A DNA stretch of 64,000 bases from Candidatus Omnitrophota bacterium (GCA_041653955.1 JBAZEH010000001.1:53342-117341), one strand, 5' to 3'; positions 3,041-49,974 are shown, numbered from the stretch's first letter. A program made the numbers and translations. Notes: a model not told the origin generated them from the letters alone.

Positions 3041-3854
3041 CATCCCCCTCTGTTTAATCTTATCCGGTTGTCAACTTTCCCTTGAGCCTACCTACAAGGA
3101 AAAGGATATCTCCCGGCTCGTAAAACAGATATGCAAGGATGAATACGGGCTTGAGGTGGTAACACATTGCACAAAAACCACCCTCTGGATCTATATGCCC
3201 CTTTCAAAGATGCTGCATCAGGATTATGCCGAAGGATCGGGCAAATTCTTTGATGACGAGCTGATGGATAAATTAAGGAATATAATGACTACTATCGGCA
3301 GGGTCATTTTGAGCGCCGATAAATCCCCGGGGTTCTACGCGCTATGGTCATCGGATATCAATATCGGCATTGACTATATCATCATCGGCAATGTAACGGA
3401 TATAAAAAAATCGTATGCCGGGGTTATCCCTGCTACCGAACTTAACCAAAGGTACGTTATCAGGTTCGGGCTTAACCCCCAGGCGGTAGGAGATGCCGCG
3501 GGAACGCATATGAATTTTTACGATATAACTCTTACTGATTTCCTTGCCCAGCAGATGGCGCAAAGGCTGGTATTCAGAATGCAGGGCGAGGAGATAAAGA
3601 AATATTTCAAGGTGGAAAGTTCAGAGGGGATATTTAAAGACGGCGTCTTTATGCTGGAATATAATATAATAGAGGCGGCTGCGCCTGAAAAATATATAGA
3701 CATAACGCAAGAGGCGCTGGATATCGCCTCTTACTGCGTAAAAACCTATGAATTCCGGGATTTCCTGGGCGTATGGGTAAGAAATATATTAACTAATGAA
3801 GTTGCCGTGCTGGATAAAAATGAGGTGCTGGCAAGGCCTATGCCTGTCAGCTAG
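2985..3854 (+). CDS. Lipoprotein of unknown function. The ORF-track start at 2976 is TTG; the ATG at 2985 is more likely and overlaps the ftsH-like 3' end.
   Basis: Signal peptide with lipobox LILSGC. No recognisable catalytic motifs. Confidence 0.5.
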   Translation: MRSKPSSGNLAKTALLLLSIPLCLILSGCQLSLEPTYKEKDISRLVKQICKDEYGLEVVTHCTKTTLWIYMPLSKMLHQDYAEGSGKFFDDELMDKLRNIMTTIGRVILSADKSPGFYALWSSDINIGIDYIIIGNVTDIKKSYAGVIPATELNQRYVIRFGLNPQAVGDAAGTHMNFYDITLTDFLAQQMAQRLVFRMQGEEIKKYFKVESSEGIFKDGVFMLEYNIIEAAAPEKYIDITQEALDIASYCVKTYEFRDFLGVWVRNILTNEVAVLDKNEVLARPMPVS

Positions 3855-4449
3855 ATATACTTACTTTTCTTCCTTCCAGTTTAAGCCTGCCTTCAACGAA
3901 TAACCTTACTGCTTCGGGGTAAAGACGGTGCTCTATCTTATGGATCTTGCCCTCTAAGGACTCCAGCGTATCGCTTTCTTCTATTTTTACTTCTTTCTGC
4001 AATATTATAGGGCCGTGGTCCATTTTTTCATCTACAAAATGCACGGTGACCCCGGTTACCTTCGCTCCATATTCAAAAGCATCTTTTATCCCGTGGCTGC
4101 CCTTAAAAGAAGGAAGGAGCGCGGGGTGTATATTCAGGATGCGCCCATGGTACCTGCTCACTAACTCCGGGCTCAAAAGCCGCATAAAACCCGCCAGCAG
4201 TATAAGGTCTATTTTATTTTCTTCCAGGTGGCGGATTATAGCTGACTCAAAAGCGCTCTTATCCGGTAGGTCATCAGCTTCTACCAGGGCCACTTTTATC
4301 CCTGCCCTTTTTGCGCGGCCTATAGCAGGCGCCTTAGGATTATCGCAAACCAAAAGGGAAAGCTCCGCCTTAATCAGGCCCTTCTTTACCGCCCTGATCA
4401 GCGCCCCGAAATTCGTACCCCTGCCTGAAGCAAAAACCGCAATCCTCAT
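3847..4449 (-). CDS. purN: Phosphoribosylglycinamide formyltransferase.
   Basis: MRIAVFASGRGTNFGALI N-terminus and NIHPALLPSFKG active-site region. Confidence 0.85.
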   Translation of the reverse strand: MRIAVFASGRGTNFGALIRAVKKGLIKAELSLLVCDNPKAPAIGRAKRAGIKVALVEADDLPDKSAFESAIIRHLEENKIDLILLAGFMRLLSPELVSRYHGRILNIHPALLPSFKGSHGIKDAFEYGAKVTGVTVHFVDEKMDHGPIILQKEVKIEESDTLESLEGKIHKIEHRLYPEAVRLFVEGRLKLEGRKVSISS

Positions 4450-4458
4450 CTTCTTATA

Positions 4459-4532
4459 GGGACGGTTCTCGTGCTAATCGGAAAAGTGTCCCTACTAGGG
4501 GACACTTTTCGCTTTGTCAGCAGAACCGTCCC
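4459..4532. repeat. REP doublet (nested palindrome, BIME-like), copy A. Arms are GGGACGGTTCTC ... GAAAAGTGTCCC / GGGACACTTTTC ... AGAACCGTCCC.
   Basis: Same architecture as copy B at 6569-6642 and as the two halves flanking the RAYT gene at 47565-47599 and 48147-48181. Confidence 0.8.
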
Positions 4533-5340
4533 TGCTTCTCCAGATTTTGTCTTCTTTACAAGCTATTGTCTTGACCGGACAGACCTTAAAACATTCTCCC
4601 CGGTTATCACAGATATTATAATCTATAACTGCGAGGTTGTTAACTATTTTTATGGCTGACACAGGGCATGCCTTCTCGCATTTCCTGCAAGCGATACACC
4701 CGACAGAGCAAGCCTCCATTACTGCCTTACCCATATCAAGCGACTTACAGCGCACCGCGAAAGCCTTATCTGCCGGTACTAAACTGAATAAACCTTTAGG
4801 GCAGGCTGCTACGCATTTACCGCAGGCAGTGCATTTATCTTCATCCACTACCGGGAGCCCCTCCTCATTCATTGTGATCGCTCCGAACGGACAAACATCA
4901 ACGCAGGTGCCGTATCCTATGCAGCCGTAAACACACGCCTTCGGCCCACCCATAACTAGGCTCGCGGACCTGCAATCTTTAGTCCCTTTGTATATAAACC
5001 TGTCCTTAACCCTTTTACTGCCTCCGTGGCAGTGCAGGACCGCTACATCCTTGGCTCTCTTCTTGAATTCTACTCCCAATATGCCTGCTATCTTCTTCCC
5101 TGCCTCTTCACTGCTGACTGTGCAGCGTTCAACTGAACAGGAACCATGAATAAGTCCTTCGGCAAACCCCATACATCCCGGCATACCGCACGCCCCGCAG
5201 TTTGCCCCGGGGAGTTCCGCGAATATCTTTTCTATGCGCGGGTCAACTACTACGCAAAATTTCCTGGCAGCCAAAGCGAGCCCCACTCCAAAAAGTATAC
5301 CCAGGCCGCTTAAAGTAAGTATAGAAGCTATTATTTCCAT
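4495..5340 (-). CDS. rnfB: Rnf complex subunit B (ferredoxin-like). The last 13 codons ([13 protein letters not shown]) lie inside REP copy A.
   Basis: N-terminal TM helix, [14 protein letters not shown] motif and multiple CxxCxxCxxxCP clusters. Last gene of an rnfCDGEAB-order operon. Confidence 0.85.
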
Positions 5341-5345
5341 ATTTT

Positions 5346-5954
5346 TTAAAACCTGAAACCACTGAATCCCATAAATGCCAGGCTCATCAGGGCCGCGACC
5401 ATAAAAGCTATCGGGATACCTTCAAAACACCTGGGCGCGTCATTTACCTGTAAGCGTTCTCTTATGCCGGACATAAGAAGCAATGCCAGGGTAAAACCTA
5501 TCCCTGCGAATAAAGACTGCGTAACGGAAAGAAGAAAACTTAACTGCGCGGGCTTGCCCGAAACAAAAAAATTATCTATATTCAAAACAGTAACGCCCAA
5601 CACGGCGCAGTTAGTGGTTATCAAAGGCAAGTATATCCCCAGTGCCCTGTAAAGGGCCGGTGATTTCTTAAGGATAACCATCTCTACGAATTGGACAAAG
5701 GCCGCGATAACCAAAATAAATGTTATTGTCCTAAGGTATGTTATATGAAAAGGTATGAGGATGAACCGGTAGGCAAGCCAGGTTATTATCCCGGACAACG
5801 TCATCACGAATATTACCGCCATACCCATGCTCATAGCCGGCTTGATATTGCGCGATACCCCAAGAAAAGGGCAAAGGCCCAGGAACTTGGAAAGTATGAA
5901 GTTATTTATAAACACCATACTTATTATAACCGTTAGGAATATCTTAAAATCCAT
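5346..5954 (-). CDS. rnfA: Rnf complex subunit A (membrane).
   Basis: Polytopic RnfA/RnfE-family membrane protein. Position in the operon is after rnfE and before rnfB. Confidence 0.75.
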
Positions 5955-5955
5955 A

Positions 5956-6549
5956 TCAGTTACCTCTATTCTTTATAAGGTTTGTCGCTGCGATAAGCAC
6001 GCCGAGCGTTAACAGCGCGCCCGGGGCCAATACCATTATATTTACAGGGTCAAAACCCTTTACAATAATATGTCCAAACAGCTTTCCGCTACCCAATATT
6101 TCCCTGATAAGCGCAACCGAACATAGCGCCAGGGTGAAACCTAACCCCATACCCAGGCCATCCATAATCGAAGGTAATATATTATTCCTTGAGGCAAAGG
6201 CCTCTGCCCTGCCCATAATAATACAATTGACTACGATAAGGGGCACAAATATCCCCAGGCGTTTCGCAAGAAGGGGCGCGTATCCTGCCATGACCAGCTC
6301 AACGATTGTCACGAATGAGGCGATAACTACGATAAAACATGGTATGCGTATCTTATGCGGGACGACACCCTTTATACCCGAAATTATGGTGTTGGATGCG
6401 ACCAGCACAAAAGTAGCCGCGATCCCCATGCCGACCGCGTTCTCAAGAGAAGTTGATACCGCCAGGGTCGGGCAGAGTCCCAGTACGATTACGAATATCG
6501 GGTTCTCCCTGAATATGCCTTTACTGAATTCTGCGAATATTTTCTTCAT
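5956..6549 (-). CDS. rnfE: Rnf complex subunit E (membrane).
   Basis: RnfA/RnfE-family membrane protein, placed between rnfG and rnfA in the operon order. Confidence 0.75.
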   Translation of the reverse strand: MKKIFAEFSKGIFRENPIFVIVLGLCPTLAVSTSLENAVGMGIAATFVLVASNTIISGIKGVVPHKIRIPCFIVVIASFVTIVELVMAGYAPLLAKRLGIFVPLIVVNCIIMGRAEAFASRNNILPSIMDGLGMGLGFTLALCSVALIREILGSGKLFGHIIVKGFDPVNIMVLAPGALLTLGVLIAATNLIKNRGN

Positions 6550-6568
6550 CTCAATTCTCTAAATTTTA

Positions 6569-6642
6569 GGGACGGTTCTCAAGTCAATCGTAAAAGTGTC
6601 CCTTCTAAGGGACAGTCTTTGCTTTGGCTCCAGAACCGTCCC
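6569..6642. repeat. REP doublet (nested palindrome), copy B, between rnfE and rnfD. The inner arm has diverged to GGGACAGTCTTTGC.
   Basis: GGGACGGTTCTC at 6569-6580 and AGAACCGTCCC at 6632-6642, with inner arms GTAAAAGTGTCCC / GGGACAGTC. Confidence 0.8.
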
Positions 6643-7591
6643 TCCTACCGTAGACGGGGGGCCTTACATATCTGTCTATAAGCGGAACAAAAGCATTCAT
6701 GATCAGGATAGAGAACGATACGCCTTCAGGGTACCCTCCCCACCTCCTGATTATAAAAGTCAGAAGCCCGCAACCTGCGCCAAAAATCAACTGCCCCTTT
6801 CGCGTTAACGGAGAGGTAGAGTAATCGGTCGCCATAAAAAACGCGCCCAATATGACCCCTCCGGAGAGCACCGCGAAAATAGGGTCCCCTTTGGCAAAAC
6901 CCTGCGCTGGGAATAACCAGCTTAACAGCCCCGCGGCGAATATAAAACTAAGAGGTATATGCAAAGATATTATCCTTAAAACAAGCAGTAGCAGCGCTCC
7001 GACGGCCAACGCCAGCACAGCCACTTCTCCGATACAGCCTCCGCGCCTGCCCAGTAACAGGTCCATATAATTTAAACCCATCGCATGGATATCCATACCG
7101 GCATTCTTAAAAAGCCCCAGCGGGGTAGCGGCGGTAACCGCGTCAGGATAGGTGAATGGTTTTGCAAAATCCGTCATATACGTCGGCCATGAAATAATTA
7201 GAAAAGCCCTCCCGGCAAGCGCAGGATTGAATATATTCCTGCCTAAACCTCCGAATACCTGCTTCGCGAAGACAATCGCGAAAAAACTCCCTGCCGCCGG
7301 TATCCATAATGGCGCTTCAGGAGGGAGGTTGTAAGCCAGAAGTAACCCTGTTAACGCGGCGCTGCCGTCAAAGATAGTTACTTTCTTCCTCCTCAACGCC
7401 AGGATGAACGCCTCTGATAATACGGCGCTCAATATGGATATCAATATCAACCATAAAGAAGCAGGGCCGAACGTATATATACCTACGATACCCGACGGTA
7501 TGAGCGCGGCGAATACCATCCACATTATCCAGGGGATATTCTCCTTTTTACGCAGATGCGGAGATACAGAAACAACAAGCCTGCCTTTCAT
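6605..7591 (-). CDS. rnfD: Rnf complex subunit D. The last 12 codons (RDGSGAKAKTVP) lie inside REP copy B.
   Basis: RnfD/NqrB-like polytopic membrane protein. The start overlaps the rnfG stop (ATGA). Confidence 0.8.
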   Translation of the reverse strand: MKGRLVVSVSPHLRKKENIPWIMWMVFAALIPSGIVGIYTFGPASLWLILISILSAVLSEAFILALRRKKVTIFDGSAALTGLLLAYNLPPEAPLWIPAAGSFFAIVFAKQVFGGLGRNIFNPALAGRAFLIISWPTYMTDFAKPFTYPDAVTAATPLGLFKNAGMDIHAMGLNYMDLLLGRRGGCIGEVAVLALAVGALLLLVLRIISLHIPLSFIFAAGLLSWLFPAQGFAKGDPIFAVLSGGVILGAFFMATDYSTSPLTRKGQLIFGAGCGLLTFIIRRWGGYPEGVSFSILIMNAFVPLIDRYVRPPVYGRRDGSGAKAKTVP

Positions 7592-8085
7592 TAGAATATC
7601 TTCTCCATCGTTGCCTTAACCGAACTTACCAGGGCGCTTGAGGATATGGTCGCGCCGGTTATAGTATCAATAGTATCATTTTTATTCTTGCCCTTGAAAC
7701 CATCAAGAAAAACACCTTCTGTTATCTTTGAGCCGATACCGGGTGTCTCATTTTGCTCCAGGATCTTTATAGTCAGCAGCGTTCCGTCCGGCTTGGCACT
7801 CACTACCGCCCTGATAACACTTGAATATCCTTTTGCCTCACAGATAAAAATATACCCGATAAGGGTTCCGCCCTCATCCAGCGCCTCATAATAATTTATG
7901 CCGTTTTTCTCGGCTTCTTTAGTTTGTTTTGCCTGCGGCAGGACCTCTTTAACCGCTTCATCCTCCTGCTCCTGGCGGGCCTTTTCTATGCGCGGCTGGG
8001 TCACGGCATAAGTCGTGCTCAACAAAATAGCGGCCAAGAAAGAAATAATAAAAAGCACCAGAGCGTATCTGACGGTATCCTTCAT
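7591..8085 (-). CDS. rnfG: Rnf complex subunit G (FMN-binding).
   Basis: N-terminal TM helix and FMN-binding motif TGATISS. Confidence 0.8.
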   Translation of the reverse strand: MKDTVRYALVLFIISFLAAILLSTTYAVTQPRIEKARQEQEDEAVKEVLPQAKQTKEAEKNGINYYEALDEGGTLIGYIFICEAKGYSSVIRAVVSAKPDGTLLTIKILEQNETPGIGSKITEGVFLDGFKGKNKNDTIDTITGATISSSALVSSVKATMEKIF

Positions 8086-9359
8086 TTCGCACCTGCCAAT
8101 ATTGATTTAGCATATTTCATATGCTGTACCATATCCCTCTTCGCCGGGCATACATAAGCGCACAACCCGCATTCAATACAGTCAGATACATTGTATGCCT
8201 CTACCAGTTCGCGGTTATTTCTTTCACTCGCCAGGCTTATCATACACGGCATAAGCCCCGCCGGGCACTCCCTGACACATGCGCCGCAGCGTATACAGAA
8301 CTCCTCTTCCGGCACTTTTATCTGTTTCTCTCCCATCAAAATAACACCCGTAGTGGATTTTATCACCGGGACCTTATCCGTATATTGGGCGATCCCCATC
8401 ATCGGCCCGCCTATGATTATTTTAGCGGGTTCTCCTTTCAGGGGCCCGCAAAAATCAATAAGTTCACTTATAAGTGTCCCTATAGGAACCATTATATTTT
8501 TGGGGTTGGATACGCAGCTTCCCGTAACAGTAACTACGCGTTCATATAAGGGCTTATTAAAATAAACAGCTTCGTATATCGCAAAGATCGTGCCGACATT
8601 ATGCACCATTACCCCGACATCAAAAGGCAATTTACCCGAAGGGACCTCCTTCTGCAAGACATTCTTTATAAGCTGCTTCTCTCCTCCCTGCGGATAAACG
8701 GATCTTAAGACTTTAACCGTATATTGCGCAGCCTTCCCCCTAAACTCATTTATGGCTTCCGGCTTATTCTCTTCAATGGCGATATATACACTTTTTATCC
8801 CCAAGCACTTTACCAGGATCCGGATACCCATTATTATCTTATCTGTATTTTCCAGCATAAGGCGGTTATCTCCGGTCAGGTATGGCTCGCATTCCGCTCC
8901 GTTCACGATCAGGGTATCAACGGGCCTGGGTGGATTCAACTTAATATGAGTAGGAAAACTCGCCCCCCCCATACCGACAATACCTGCCTCCCGCACGATC
9001 CGGCGCACCTCATCAGGGGTTAACTTGTCTACCTCCTCCTGCGTCCGGCTGCCGGAATAATTCCGGCTATCTTTCCCATCCCCATCAATGACTATTGCTT
9101 TGCAGCGCCCTGAAACAGGATGAGGCCAATCCTGGACAGAAACAACCTTCCCTGATATGGAGGCGTGTATCGGGGCATAAACATGAGCCTCTACCGCGGC
9201 TATCCTTTGTCCAGCAGAAACGATATCTCCTGCCTTCACTTCAGGAAGGCACGGTTTACCCAGATGCTGGCTTAAAGGTATATAAACACGCGAAGGCAAA
9301 AGAAGCCTCTCTATCGCCTTATTTTCAGTCTCTTTCTTATGTTCTTTTAATTTAACCAT
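8082..9359 (-). CDS. rnfC: Rnf complex subunit C (NADH-binding, 2x[4Fe-4S]).
   Basis: CIRCGACVRECP and CIECGLCAYVCP motifs; RnfC-type SLBB/NADH-binding region. Confidence 0.85.
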   Translation of the reverse strand: MVKLKEHKKETENKAIERLLLPSRVYIPLSQHLGKPCLPEVKAGDIVSAGQRIAAVEAHVYAPIHASISGKVVSVQDWPHPVSGRCKAIVIDGDGKDSRNYSGSRTQEEVDKLTPDEVRRIVREAGIVGMGGASFPTHIKLNPPRPVDTLIVNGAECEPYLTGDNRLMLENTDKIIMGIRILVKCLGIKSVYIAIEENKPEAINEFRGKAAQYTVKVLRSVYPQGGEKQLIKNVLQKEVPSGKLPFDVGVMVHNVGTIFAIYEAVYFNKPLYERVVTVTGSCVSNPKNIMVPIGTLISELIDFCGPLKGEPAKIIIGGPMMGIAQYTDKVPVIKSTTGVILMGEKQIKVPEEEFCIRCGACVRECPAGLMPCMISLASERNNRELVEAYNVSDCIECGLCAYVCPAKRDMVQHMKYAKSILAGAK

Positions 9360-11135: not shown

Positions 11136-11165
11136 GTTAGATAAGTCCCAGTAACCCAAATAAAA

Positions 11166-11201
11166 AAGCCGTTGTTTTTTAAGAAATAACGGCTTTTTTA
11201 T
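11166..11201 (+). terminator. Rho-independent terminator of cspA.
   Basis: GCCGTT ... AACGGC hairpin followed by TTTTTTA. Confidence 0.7.
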
Positions 11202-11221
11202 TTCTATTAAGGGTTGTATAT

Positions 11222-13099: not shown

Positions 13100-13171
13100 T
13101 GCCGAGGGAGGGAATCGGACCCCCCACGCCGGCCTTTTCAGGGCCGCGCTCTACCACTAAGCTACCTCGGC
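13100..13171 (-). tRNA. tRNA-Phe (anticodon GAA). No encoded CCA.
   Basis: GCCGAGGTAGCTTAGTGGTAGAGCGCGGCCCTGAAAAGGCCGGCGTGGGGGGTCCGATTCCCTCCCTCGGCA; anticodon stem CGGCC/GGCCG, loop CTGAAAA, discriminator A. Confidence 0.8.
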
Positions 13172-13337
13172 TAAATCTTTTTGTTGGTGAATCCTCTGTC
13201 GCCCCGCCTTCACCTGCTTACCGCGGGCCATCGGAGGAGCTAGCTACCTCGGCTAAATCTTTTTGTTGGCGAATCCTCTGTCGCCCCGCCTTCACCTGCT
13301 TACCGCGGGCCATCGGAGGAGCTAGCTGCCTGGGCTA
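13160..13337. repeat. 82-bp direct tandem repeat, about 2.2 copies with 1 mismatch. The first copy begins with the 12 nt at the 5' end of tRNA-Phe.
   Basis: Copies at 13160-13241, 13242-13323 and a partial third at 13324-13337. Confidence 0.8.
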
Positions 13338-47564: not shown

Positions 47565-48181
47565 ATTATATCAGGGACGGTTCTCACACTAAAGCAAAAA
47601 GTGTCCCCTTTTTACAGTTAGATATGCGCATTACATGCGTCTATTGTAACAGGAGGTGATAAATATGCCAAGAGAAGCCAGGCGTCTTCTGGAAAATGTG
47701 TGTTATCACATATTATCCAGAGGCAACCAGAAACAGAGAACATTTTTTAAAGAAGATGATTATCTCATGTATCTTGAATTGCTTGGAAAATATAAGGTGA
47801 AATTCAAGTTTAAGCTATATGGATTCTGCCTGATGCCAAATCATGTGCATCTAATGGTAGAGCCGCGAATACCCAAAGATATATCAAAGGCAATAGGAGG
47901 ACTGAATCTCTGCTATACCCAGTGGTTTAATAGAGAATACAATAAAGTAGGACACCTTTGGCAGGATAGATTTAAAAGTTTTATAGTAGCAAAAGATCAA
48001 TATCTTATTAATTGCATAAATTATATAGAGTTGAATCCCATCCGGGCTGAAATTATCCACGACCCTATGGAATACAAATGGAGTAGTTATAGGTCAAGAT
48101 TGACCGGAGATAAAAGAAAGCTATTAGATAAACTAAATATTTTTTAGGGGACACTTTTCCGATTGGCGCGAGAACCGTCCC
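47565..48181 (+). mobile_element. REPtron: a RAYT gene flanked by two inverted REP halves (left 47565-47599, right 47147-48181 region i.e. 48147-48181). Together the halves equal one full nested-palindrome copy split by the gene.
   Basis: Left GGGACGGTTCTC ... AAAAAGTGTCCCC; right GGGGACACTTTTCC ... GAGAACCGTCCC. The RAYT stop TAG is the first 3 nt of the right REP (TAGGGGACAC). Confidence 0.8.
47656..48147 (+). CDS. REP-associated tyrosine transposase (RAYT / TnpA_REP, IS200/IS605 Y1 HuH family).
   Basis: HuH motif NHVHLMV and catalytic Tyr region NYIELNPIRA; 163 aa. Confidence 0.85.
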   Translation: MINMPREARRLLENVCYHILSRGNQKQRTFFKEDDYLMYLELLGKYKVKFKFKLYGFCLMPNHVHLMVEPRIPKDISKAIGGLNLCYTQWFNREYNKVGHLWQDRFKSFIVAKDQYLINCINYIELNPIRAEIIHDPMEYKWSSYRSRLTGDKRKLLDKLNIF

Positions 48182-49974
48182 TACCATTCTAATCTTACTC
48201 CGGCCTCAATCCAGCGGCCGGGCTGCGGTATCCCCTCTATCTCCTGATATTCCACGTTCAGGATATTGGTGGCCTCTAAAAATATCTGGGAATTTTTGAG
48301 AAAACCATATGAAAGGCGGGAACTTAAAAGCAGCCACCCGCGGCGCGAAGGCCTCTTTTTATAAGTTACGCCTATGGACTGCACGCCGAAGGGAAACTTA
48401 AAAATAACGGCGTTATTTACCAGATGCTTTATATAATTAGGCCCGTACTTATAAAGATAACCCTGGTCATCCACGCGTTTATTAATGAATGAGTAGTTGG
48501 AATCAACCGATATGACAGGATTTATCCTGAACCTCAAATAATTCTCCATCCCAAATACCCCGGCTTCGCCGATATTCTCCACCTGCCACTTTGCCTGGTA
48601 GGATGAGCGTTTTACCCAATCAATAAGGTCTTCTTCCCTCCTATAAAATAGCGTAAACCCGAACGACAAACCACCCTCTTTATAATCATAACCTGCCTGG
48701 TAATTAAGCGATTTCTCCGCGGAAAGGGAGGCATTCCCGAGCGTCACGGGGTCATTGTAATAAAGTTCCGTAAAGGAAGGGACACGCGCGCTCCGGGATA
48801 CCCCCGCGTGCACAAAAGAGCGGTTTGAAAGCTTATACCTGGAGTTTAGCGAACCGGAGTATATCTCGTCGAAACCTTCAAAATTGTCCATGCGCAGCGA
48901 TAGCCCTAAAGACAGGCTCTCGTCCAATTCTTTGCTATCGTCAAAGAATATACTTTCATGCCTGCGCATATGCCTGCCTAAATTAGTTGAATTTATCCTC
49001 TCTTCTCCGTATTCCACCCCCGAACCTGCCCTCCCTAAAATACCGAGCTCTTTCTGCAGGTATATCTTCGGAGTATATATATCTGTGCGGTGATGGTTAA
49101 GGTAAGAACTCTTACCCTGGGTCTTATCCAGCGCGAATTTATCATAGTGCCTGCGCCATAAGAAAGAAGGCCTTATGATGAGTCCGTCTTTATCCAGATT
49201 CATCCCGGTATTTAAGAGATAAGTCTTAATCCACTCTTTTGAAGGATAATCCAGGCCGGGAGTGTAGAAATCATAAGCCCCGTACTCCTTCTCCTGATAG
49301 CCGAAATTAAGATCGATCCCCCCATCAGGAATATCAAAAGATGAATTCAAGGTAGTGGTAAATTTTTTGAAGTCGGTATCATAGCTAAAGCCATCAGACT
49401 CCTGATTTTCCAGGCTAAGCCTTACGCCCAGCCTATCGGTTTTCTCGCTTATGCTGAATAACCCGGAGAATGTGCGATGCTCCCCTCCCTTTAATTCCAG
49501 GACCGCCCCCTTATCCTCTGGTTTCTTAAGGGTGATATTTACCGCACCTCCCATTGCATCAGGCCCGAACAATGAAGAACCTGCCCCGGGAAGCACTTCA
49601 ATCCTTTCTATATCCTCGCTGGTAAGCGGTATATCGCAATTATAATGGGCTGTCTGGGGGTCATTTATGCGCTCTCCGTTCAAAAGCATAAGGACCCCCT
49701 GGAAGGTGGAGCCACGCAAAGAAAAATCACTCTGTATGCCCCCTTTGGGAGAACGGCTCGCCAAGTCTAAAGGCAATAAATTGAGGGACTCGACAGGCGA
49801 CCCAAAAGGCAGGCCCTTTGAATCTTCAGCGGATAAAGAAAACGGCCTTAAAAGATGGTACCTGCTTTTGGTAACGACTATCTGTTCAAGTTCTGTCCCG
49901 CAATATGCCCGGCCGAAACAAGAGGCGGCCGCGGCAACCAGAAAAAATAAACCGCCCTTTCCTGCATTTAACAT
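48181..49974 (-). CDS. TonB-dependent outer-membrane receptor.
   Basis: Signal peptide, plug region, beta-barrel length and C-terminal aromatic residue (… VRLEW). The stop codon abuts the right REP. Confidence 0.7.
   Translation of the reverse strand: MLNAGKGGLFFLVAAAASCFGRAYCGTELEQIVVTKSRYHLLRPFSLSAEDSKGLPFGSPVESLNLLPLDLASRSPKGGIQSDFSLRGSTFQGVLMLLNGERINDPQTAHYNCDIPLTSEDIERIEVLPGAGSSLFGPDAMGGAVNITLKKPEDKGAVLELKGGEHRTFSGLFSISEKTDRLGVRLSLENQESDGFSYDTDFKKFTTTLNSSFDIPDGGIDLNFGYQEKEYGAYDFYTPGLDYPSKEWIKTYLLNTGMNLDKDGLIIRPSFLWRRHYDKFALDKTQGKSSYLNHHRTDIYTPKIYLQKELGILGRAGSGVEYGEERINSTNLGRHMRRHESIFFDDSKELDESLSLGLSLRMDNFEGFDEIYSGSLNSRYKLSNRSFVHAGVSRSARVPSFTELYYNDPVTLGNASLSAEKSLNYQAGYDYKEGGLSFGFTLFYRREEDLIDWVKRSSYQAKWQVENIGEAGVFGMENYLRFRINPVISVDSNYSFINKRVDDQGYLYKYGPNYIKHLVNNAVIFKFPFGVQSIGVTYKKRPSRRGWLLLSSRLSYGFLKNSQIFLEATNILNVEYQEIEGIPQPGRWIEAGVRLEW

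Follow-up and report, generated by a model that had tools for sequence, protein, structure and literature searches.

Inverted REP doublets supply the C-terminal tails and stop codons of RnfB and RnfD in an Omnitrophota rnf operon

The stretch of DNA analyzed in this study, hereafter the window, comprises 64 kb from an uncultured Candidatus Omnitrophota bacterium and carries on its minus strand an rnf operon with the gene order rnfC, rnfG, rnfD, rnfE, rnfA, rnfB and purN, as assigned by Pfam. Two copies of a palindromic element are embedded in this operon. Each is an inverted doublet of repetitive extragenic palindromic (REP) units, of the type known as REP doublets forming hairpins (REPINs), and each overlaps the 3' end of an rnf gene. 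The genes, the elements and the tails encoded by the elements are as follows.

8082-9359, minus strand: rnfC (Pfam)
7591-8085, minus strand: rnfG (Pfam)
6605-7591, minus strand: rnfD, 328 aa (Pfam NQR2_RnfD_RnfE, 4e-115)
6605..6643, minus strand: RnfD REPIN tail, 12 codons at 6608-6643 reading RDGSGAKAKTVP, then TAG at 6605-6607 (translation)
6568..6643, minus strand: REPIN copy B, 76-nt doublet with arms 6568-6602 and 6609-6643, between rnfD and rnfE
5956-6549, minus strand: rnfE (Pfam Rnf-Nqr, 2e-65), start codon 18 nt downstream of REPIN copy B
5346-5954, minus strand: rnfA (Pfam)
4495-5340, minus strand: rnfB, 281 aa (Pfam FeS and Fer4 domains)
4495..4533, minus strand: RnfB REPIN tail, 12 codons at 4498-4533, then TAG at 4495-4497 (translation)
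4458..4533, minus strand: REPIN copy A, 76-nt doublet, arms 4458-4492 and 4499-4533 joined by a 6-nt loop, between rnfB and purN
3847-4449, minus strand: purN (Pfam Formyl_trans_N, 1.5e-57), ATG at 4447-4449

The 11-mer GGGACGGTTCT occurs at six sites in the window (4459, 4522(-), 6569, 6632(-), 47574 and 48171(-)), against a chance expectation of 0.69, and a count of six was reached in 0 of 100 shuffles. Six 35-nt arms of the form AGGGACGGTTCT-N18-GTCCC are present, and a relaxed search of the window returned no further ones. Four of the arms make up the two 76-nt inverted doublets; the remaining two are inverted, 536 nt apart and enclose one open reading frame (ORF). The doublets are 82% identical to each other, with arm complementarity of 80% within copy A and 76% within copy B. 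In the mRNA sense, copy A is predicted to fold at -45.9 kcal/mol (z = -7.3) and copy B at -41.0 kcal/mol (z = -5.5), both with UAG in the apical loop, and single arms fold alone at -10 to -13 kcal/mol (z = -2.5 to -3.1). The family has two consistently different arm types, AATCGG and AAAGC. An Alifold consensus of 31 family members displays compensatory changes at four inner pairs; covariation is only modest, since the outer 12 bp never vary and MAFFT misplaces arms with a 1-nt difference. Rfam reported only two tRNAs over the window and no match at the elements. No intrinsic terminator (GC-rich hairpin followed by a U-run) was predicted on the minus strand at copy A or copy B, and the total for the window was not above that of shuffles. 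The element boundary is ambiguous by 1 nt, which leaves the native gene ends reconstructed below unaffected.

Both rnfB and rnfD enter their element through the AAAGC-type arm, in one shared orientation and frame (AGG GAC GGT TCT), and both end at a TAG within the hairpin loop. By translation, RnfD runs through ...VYGR into RDGSGAKAKTVP and the stop, and RnfB through its native ...KIWRS into 12 element-encoded residues. These translations bear out the original prediction that REP copies in a common orientation supply the 3' ends and the TAG codons of both genes, and that two different proteins share one REP-encoded ending, since both tails are of the same type and 12 residues long. The predicted number of element codons was correct for RnfD (12) and one too high for RnfB, where the element contributes 12 rather than 13 and the Ser codon AGC is part of the native flank. 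The purN start codon had been placed directly against copy A; its ATG in fact lies 8 nt away from the element.

The tails are lacking in the homologues compared. The RnfD of the window is 100% identical to an NCBI MAG protein; all 119 other RnfD homologues among the matches listed end in ...VYG followed by a short unrelated tail, mostly of 0-3 residues (KK, TK, R). RnfB homologues outside the 99%-identical cluster of the window protein (n = 117) end in ...W plus 2-4 residues or in other short tails, and the RDGS...VP peptide was found in none of these 117. Alignments of RnfD to Pfam, to TIGR01946 and to the solved chain 7zc6_D all break off at the element boundary, query residue 315-316, the chain being aligned up to its residue 308/310. 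For RnfB, the alignments to chains 9eri_B and 7zc6_B stop at query residue 260-261. The closest syntenic operon (locus L119), with an RnfD 73% identical to that of the window, shares the gene order including purN, an unknown 294-aa gene and ftsH, and has 4-nt (ATGA) overlaps at both rnfD/rnfE and rnfB/purN.

The junctions before insertion were reconstructed by removing the 76 nt of each element in silico. Without copy A, RnfB would end ..WRS-IRR-stop, with a TGA overlapping the purN ATG (ATGA); without copy B, RnfD would end ..VYGR-KI-stop, with the rnfE ATG 9 nt further on. The reconstructed empty sites read ...GGAGAAGC / ATAAGAAGATG and ...GGTAGG / AAAATTTAG, and the native gene ends displaced by the elements are the following.

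6559..6567, minus strand: displaced native rnfD 3' end, AAA ATT TAG (KI-stop), 9 nt before the rnfE ATG (empty-site reconstruction)
4446..4457, minus strand: displaced native rnfB 3' end, ATA AGA AGA TGA (IRR-stop) (empty-site reconstruction)

Three native codons were displaced in rnfB and two in rnfD, and the start/stop pairs that formerly overlapped or adjoined are now 45 and 55 nt apart with hairpin-forming RNA between them. Because the tails are absent from homologues, lie beyond the family models and the solved RnfD chain, and stand where L119 has zero-spacer junctions, we regard them as additions. Alignment with orthologues had been proposed beforehand as a check, and the 119 listed RnfD and 117 RnfB homologues, all without the REP tail, answer it in favour of addition. 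Together with the empty-site reconstruction, this comparison supports the claim that REP insertion rewrote coding 3' ends within the rnf operon.

The remaining two arms of the window flank a gene for a transposase resembling the REP-associated tyrosine transposases (RAYTs), 41 kb from the doublets, and represent the same two arm types.

47573..47609, plus strand: left REP arm of the AAAGC type; mnmA start codon 18 nt away
47665..48147, plus strand: RAYT-like Y1/HUH transposase gene, 160 aa (Pfam Y1_Tnp 1.1e-18), own TAG abutting the right arm
48146..48182, minus strand: right REP arm, AATCGG type, final 2 nt within the TAG of the TonB-dependent receptor gene
48181..49974, minus strand: TonB-dependent receptor (Pfam Plug, TonB_dep_Rec_b-barrel), ending ...VRLEW-stop, stop TAG at 48181-48183

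This is the only RAYT gene within the window. The NCBIfam model REP_Tyr_transpos aligns with its product from end to end at 65.2 bits against a cut-off of 80, the Pfam Y1_Tnp match is above cut-off, and a sequence search of PDB gave no match. The same layout, a homologue of 156-175 aa between inverted arms, was found in at least eight more Omnitrophota loci (L049, L068, L074, L081, L083, L107, L108 and L112), and identity of these homologues to the window protein is 49-58%. Nine REP-flanked homologues all preserve NH[VI]H and Y-[IV]-E-x-N-P, including the HUH histidines H60 and H62 and the tyrosine Y120. Since these arms bracket a Y1 transposase gene in inverted orientation, copies A and B are classified as REPIN-type doublets and assigned to a REP/RAYT system; the RAYT is their presumed mobilizer. 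The stop codon of the TonB-dependent receptor gene lies at the RAYT-flanking REP, as was claimed, and its TAG shares 2 nt with the REP end. The TAG codons in the loops of copies A and B (loops at 4493-4498 and 6603-6608) match the position where the RAYT's own TAG (48145-48147) abuts the GGGACAC of the right arm, and may be what remains of the transposase gene's stop codon. In locus L081 (positions 129-747), the RAYT homologue reads into its own flanking REP and has a repeat-encoded C-terminus, ..RTVPAL.

A scan for the arm pattern with one genome per species found it in at least 117 loci, and the 80 listed include at least 20 Omnitrophota assemblies; none of the at least 117 loci listed overlaps the window. 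The arms adjoin unrelated genes in more than 100 loci. We further took a census of 42 distinct doublets with 84 flanks, drawn from the genome scan and a metagenome doublet scan, using randomly placed windows in the same loci as control. Each flank was scored by the stop codon of whichever gene reads toward the element. Stops inside the element account for 10.7% of the 84 flanks (control 4.9%), TAG codons built with the terminal AG of the element for 9.5% (8/84; control 0.4%), and stops 3-21 nt upstream of the element for 26% (control 1.5%), whereas read-through, with the element within an ORF, was seen in 1.2% (control 26.7%). The stop is inside the element or built from it in about one flank in five. 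The TonB-dependent receptor of the window belongs to the terminal-AG class, and its terminal ...EW is preserved. Thus, in Omnitrophota, this REPIN family is widespread and clustered at stop codons.

All three frames are represented among the tails of the family, in about 5, 2 and 3 distinct cases, and tail length ranges from 4 to about 23 residues. The frame shared by rnfB and rnfD is therefore most simply explained as coincidence, and the chance that two copies share both orientation and frame is roughly 1 in 6.

Several members of the family deserve mention on their own account. In the Omnitrophota metagenome-assembled genome (MAG) JAHJGB010000134 (L004:2245-2318), a REPIN lies in frame inside queA (Pfam Queuosine_synth 4.5e-132) and adds about 15 residues (the RDGSRANRKSVPQGTGLALAPEPSL region), in a loop, relative to Bacillus subtilis QueA (1yy3); this insertion resembles the Rickettsia palindromic element (RPE) type. 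Orthologous genes of about 715 aa in two species (L019:2740-2825 and L027:4312-4397; 76% aa and 77% nt identity) share the exact codon of REPIN insertion (..YNAI / GTVL..), and each gene terminates within the element. The insertion is therefore older than the species split, and such tails can persist through speciation. The GGGACGGTTCT core is also found in Firmicutes (Lachnospiraceae, Eubacterium, Bacillus and Clostridia; L002, L003, L034, L035, L038, L064 and others), as perfect or near-perfect 35-nt palindromes of the form AGGGACGGTTCT-N11-AGAACCGTCCC, for which kinship and convergence with the Omnitrophota REP are both possible.

Taken together, copies A and B are very probably RAYT-associated REPINs inserted at gene junctions, with the tails as tolerated by-products. 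A REPIN of this family is a non-autonomous doublet of a 35-nt REP with inverted arms and a loop of 2-6 nt, which the RAYT may mobilize by cleavage and joining of single-stranded hairpins, by analogy with IS200/IS605 and the TnpA-REP of Escherichia coli. Such doublets would have entered junctions of rnfCGDEAB-purN that had essentially zero intergenic space, copy A three codons ahead of the native rnfB stop (the TGA overlapping the purN ATG) and copy B two codons ahead of the native rnfD stop. The reading frame now crosses the first arm (AGG GAC GGT TCT ... GTC CCN) and ends at the loop TAG, which is presumed to be in frame by chance, so each protein would have lost 2-3 native residues and now has a 12-residue hydrophilic tail of the same type. 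A likely side effect is the loss of translational coupling through start/stop overlap, and the polycistronic mRNA would now contain a stable hairpin, with a folding energy of about -41 to -46 kcal/mol. We take the tails, which extend past the folded portion of either protein, to be most likely tolerated, and presumably neutral, by-products, because they are short, hydrophilic, beyond the conserved ends and variable across the family.

Four points weigh against this interpretation. No empty-site allele was found in a close relative: the closest RnfB sequences, 99% identical and from three assemblies, all have the tail, and the nearest element-free RnfD is only 73% identical. The insertion is therefore reconstructed, not observed. 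The RAYT of the window, at 65 bits, falls short of the NCBIfam equivalog cut-off of 80 bits. If copy B is defined as 74 nt, its removal yields another native end, ..VYGRIKFRELR-stop, with an ATGA overlap. Finally, the census relies on crude ORF calls, not on a gene finder.

REP termini that supply TAG stops have been described before, as have copies located within coding regions or at their ends (Di Nocera 2013, PMC3733652) and REP dimers inside genes that encode 20-30 amino acids (Di Nocera et al. 2013, PMC3733652). The supply of stop codons and C-termini by REPs is thus already documented, and the case reported here is in a new lineage; our literature search found no paper pairing Omnitrophota with REPINs. 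With REP/REPIN-RAYT systems (Nunvar 2010, PMC2817692; Bertels and Rainey 2011; PMC3733652) the Omnitrophota family shares short palindromic units paired into inverted doublets, a Y1/HUH gene between the same units in inverted orientation, and a location at gene 3' ends. It differs from them in its terminus, (T/C)AGGGACGG instead of a terminal GTAG or CGTC tag, in its two distinct arm types, and in a RAYT that falls below the NCBIfam equivalog cut-off. RPEs, the classic example of in-frame elements, are likewise translated palindromic mobile repeats, found within functional-looking proteins according to what PMC3733652 relates of Ogata et al. 2000, and the Omnitrophota member in frame inside queA of L004 is comparable to them. 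However, RPEs are longer, no transposase is known for them, and most are in-frame insertions internal to a gene, whereas copies A and B take the place of the C-terminus and contribute the stop codon, without keeping the frame on both sides. Miniature inverted-repeat transposable elements (MITEs) such as Correia/NEMIS, ERIC, RUP and Nezha are also non-autonomous inverted repeats that are co-transcribed, form hairpins and are sometimes fused to ORFs, but they derive from DDE insertion sequences and have target-site duplications, while the family in the window is tied to Y1/HUH and lacks the duplication. REPs only a few nucleotides from stop codons in E. coli, as reported by Liang, Rudd and Deutscher 2015, are paralleled by the stops 3-21 nt upstream in 26% of the family flanks. 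They differ from the window copies, where the stop codon is inside the hairpin loop. With the stop in the loop, the stem would already be melted by the terminating ribosome, so stalling, the mechanism put forward for E. coli, need not be at work here.

Given the same insertion origin, the copies might have been retained for a function, with the hairpins acting as intra-operon RNA elements that set subunit stoichiometry. We regard this as unlikely, if still worth weighing. By analogy with E. coli, the hairpins may protect the upstream mRNA from 3' exonucleases, uncouple the translation of rnfE-A-B and of purN, lower translation of the gene that follows once coupling is lost, or cause a pause of termination at Pro-UAG. 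REP hairpins are said to stabilize upstream mRNA, E. coli REPs no more than 15 nt from stop codons reportedly lower translation, and a C-terminal Pro is reported to promote tmRNA tagging. The high stability of the hairpins, the stop codon in the apical loop, the presence of copy A in three independent assemblies and the REPIN kept at an identical codon in the L019/L027 orthologues are all in keeping with retention, as is the finding that 46% of flanks have a stop between 21 nt upstream and the element interior, compared with 6.8% of controls. That clustering is, however, equally explained by purifying selection against insertions elsewhere in a compact genome; canonical intrinsic terminators were not predicted at copy A or copy B in the mRNA sense, and the variable frame and length of the family tails (4 to about 23 aa) argue against a selected peptide. 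A stronger version, which we consider improbable, holds that, in the compact genomes of Omnitrophota with their overlapping start and stop codons, the family is actively targeted near stop codons instead of being just tolerated at them, and is kept as a post-transcriptional device that tunes the ratio of upstream to downstream products; the loop stop together with ...Val-Pro-UAG may then break coupling or pause termination in operons such as rnf.

Three other explanations were weighed. It is very unlikely that the elements are MITEs of a TA-targeting DDE transposon (IS630/Tc1-like), even though the family flanks often read TA/GGGAC...GTCCC/TA, with A at position -1 in 92/124 ends and T at position -2 in 59/124. 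The window copies lack the TA duplication (TA...TG and TA...TC), and removal of the A...T ends along with the element is needed to restore the frame and the ATGA overlap. Each arm is a small hairpin by itself, as REPs are, and in loci of the Omnitrophota type ten arm-pair units 450-900 nt apart enclose a Y1/HUH gene; other inverted arm pairs at this distance enclose unrelated ORFs, and none encloses a DDE transposase. A TA target-site duplication was rejected for both window copies. Still less probable is an artefact of assembly or binning. Repeats are able to cause chimeric joins in metagenome assemblies, but the 281-aa RnfB is present in three independent assemblies (an NCBI MAG, a JGI contig and Logan/ENA), which provide all 3 members of its 90% cluster, and the three sequences read directly (the window, P0121 and P0242) have the same tail. 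The independent JGI contig (L118) is collinear over rnfB-REPIN-purN with an identical element (1598/1601 identical positions, or 3 mismatches in 1601 nt), and the gene order of the window is that of L119. We attach practically no credence to a shared tail that is an ancestral or convergent motif of Rnf proteins, with the palindrome incidental. Nearly the same ending on two subunits of one complex would fit such a motif, but the tail occurs in 0/119 RnfD listed and in 0/117 RnfB outside the cluster of the window, the same DNA flanks a transposase gene and adjoins unrelated genes in more than 100 loci, and family models and solved structures stop before the tail. The orthologue comparison rules this motif out.

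In the interpretation that we favour, insertion of RAYT-associated REPINs, the rnf operon offers a case that can be reconstructed, in which selfish hairpin repeats would have rewritten C-termini and broken start/stop coupling in a conserved operon for energy conservation. What is new is the host phylum, a family with the (T/C)AGGGACGGTTCT terminus and two arm types, and a clean reconstruction of two insertions at zero-spacer junctions of one operon. A phylum-wide REP/RAYT family is documented here in the little-studied Omnitrophota. Annotation pipelines deposit the tails as parts of RnfB and RnfD (MFA5355840.1, MFA5355843.1), and users of MAG proteomes should regard the last 12 residues as repeat-derived. 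If the hairpins do modulate expression, they would provide a handle on operon stoichiometry in unculturable organisms.

Two further features of the window were noted apart from the REP family. An 82-nt tandem duplication at 13160-13323, with two copies 99% identical, has its start within tRNA-Phe (13100-13171, minus strand), at the 5' end, and repeats the first 12 nt of the tRNA together with its upstream leader; a third, degenerate start follows. In an intergenic gap at 11158-11203, a palindrome of 23+23 nt with A/T-rich flanks (AAATAAAAAAGCCGTTGTTTTTT / AAGAAATAACGGCTTTTTTATTT) resembles a bidirectional terminator.

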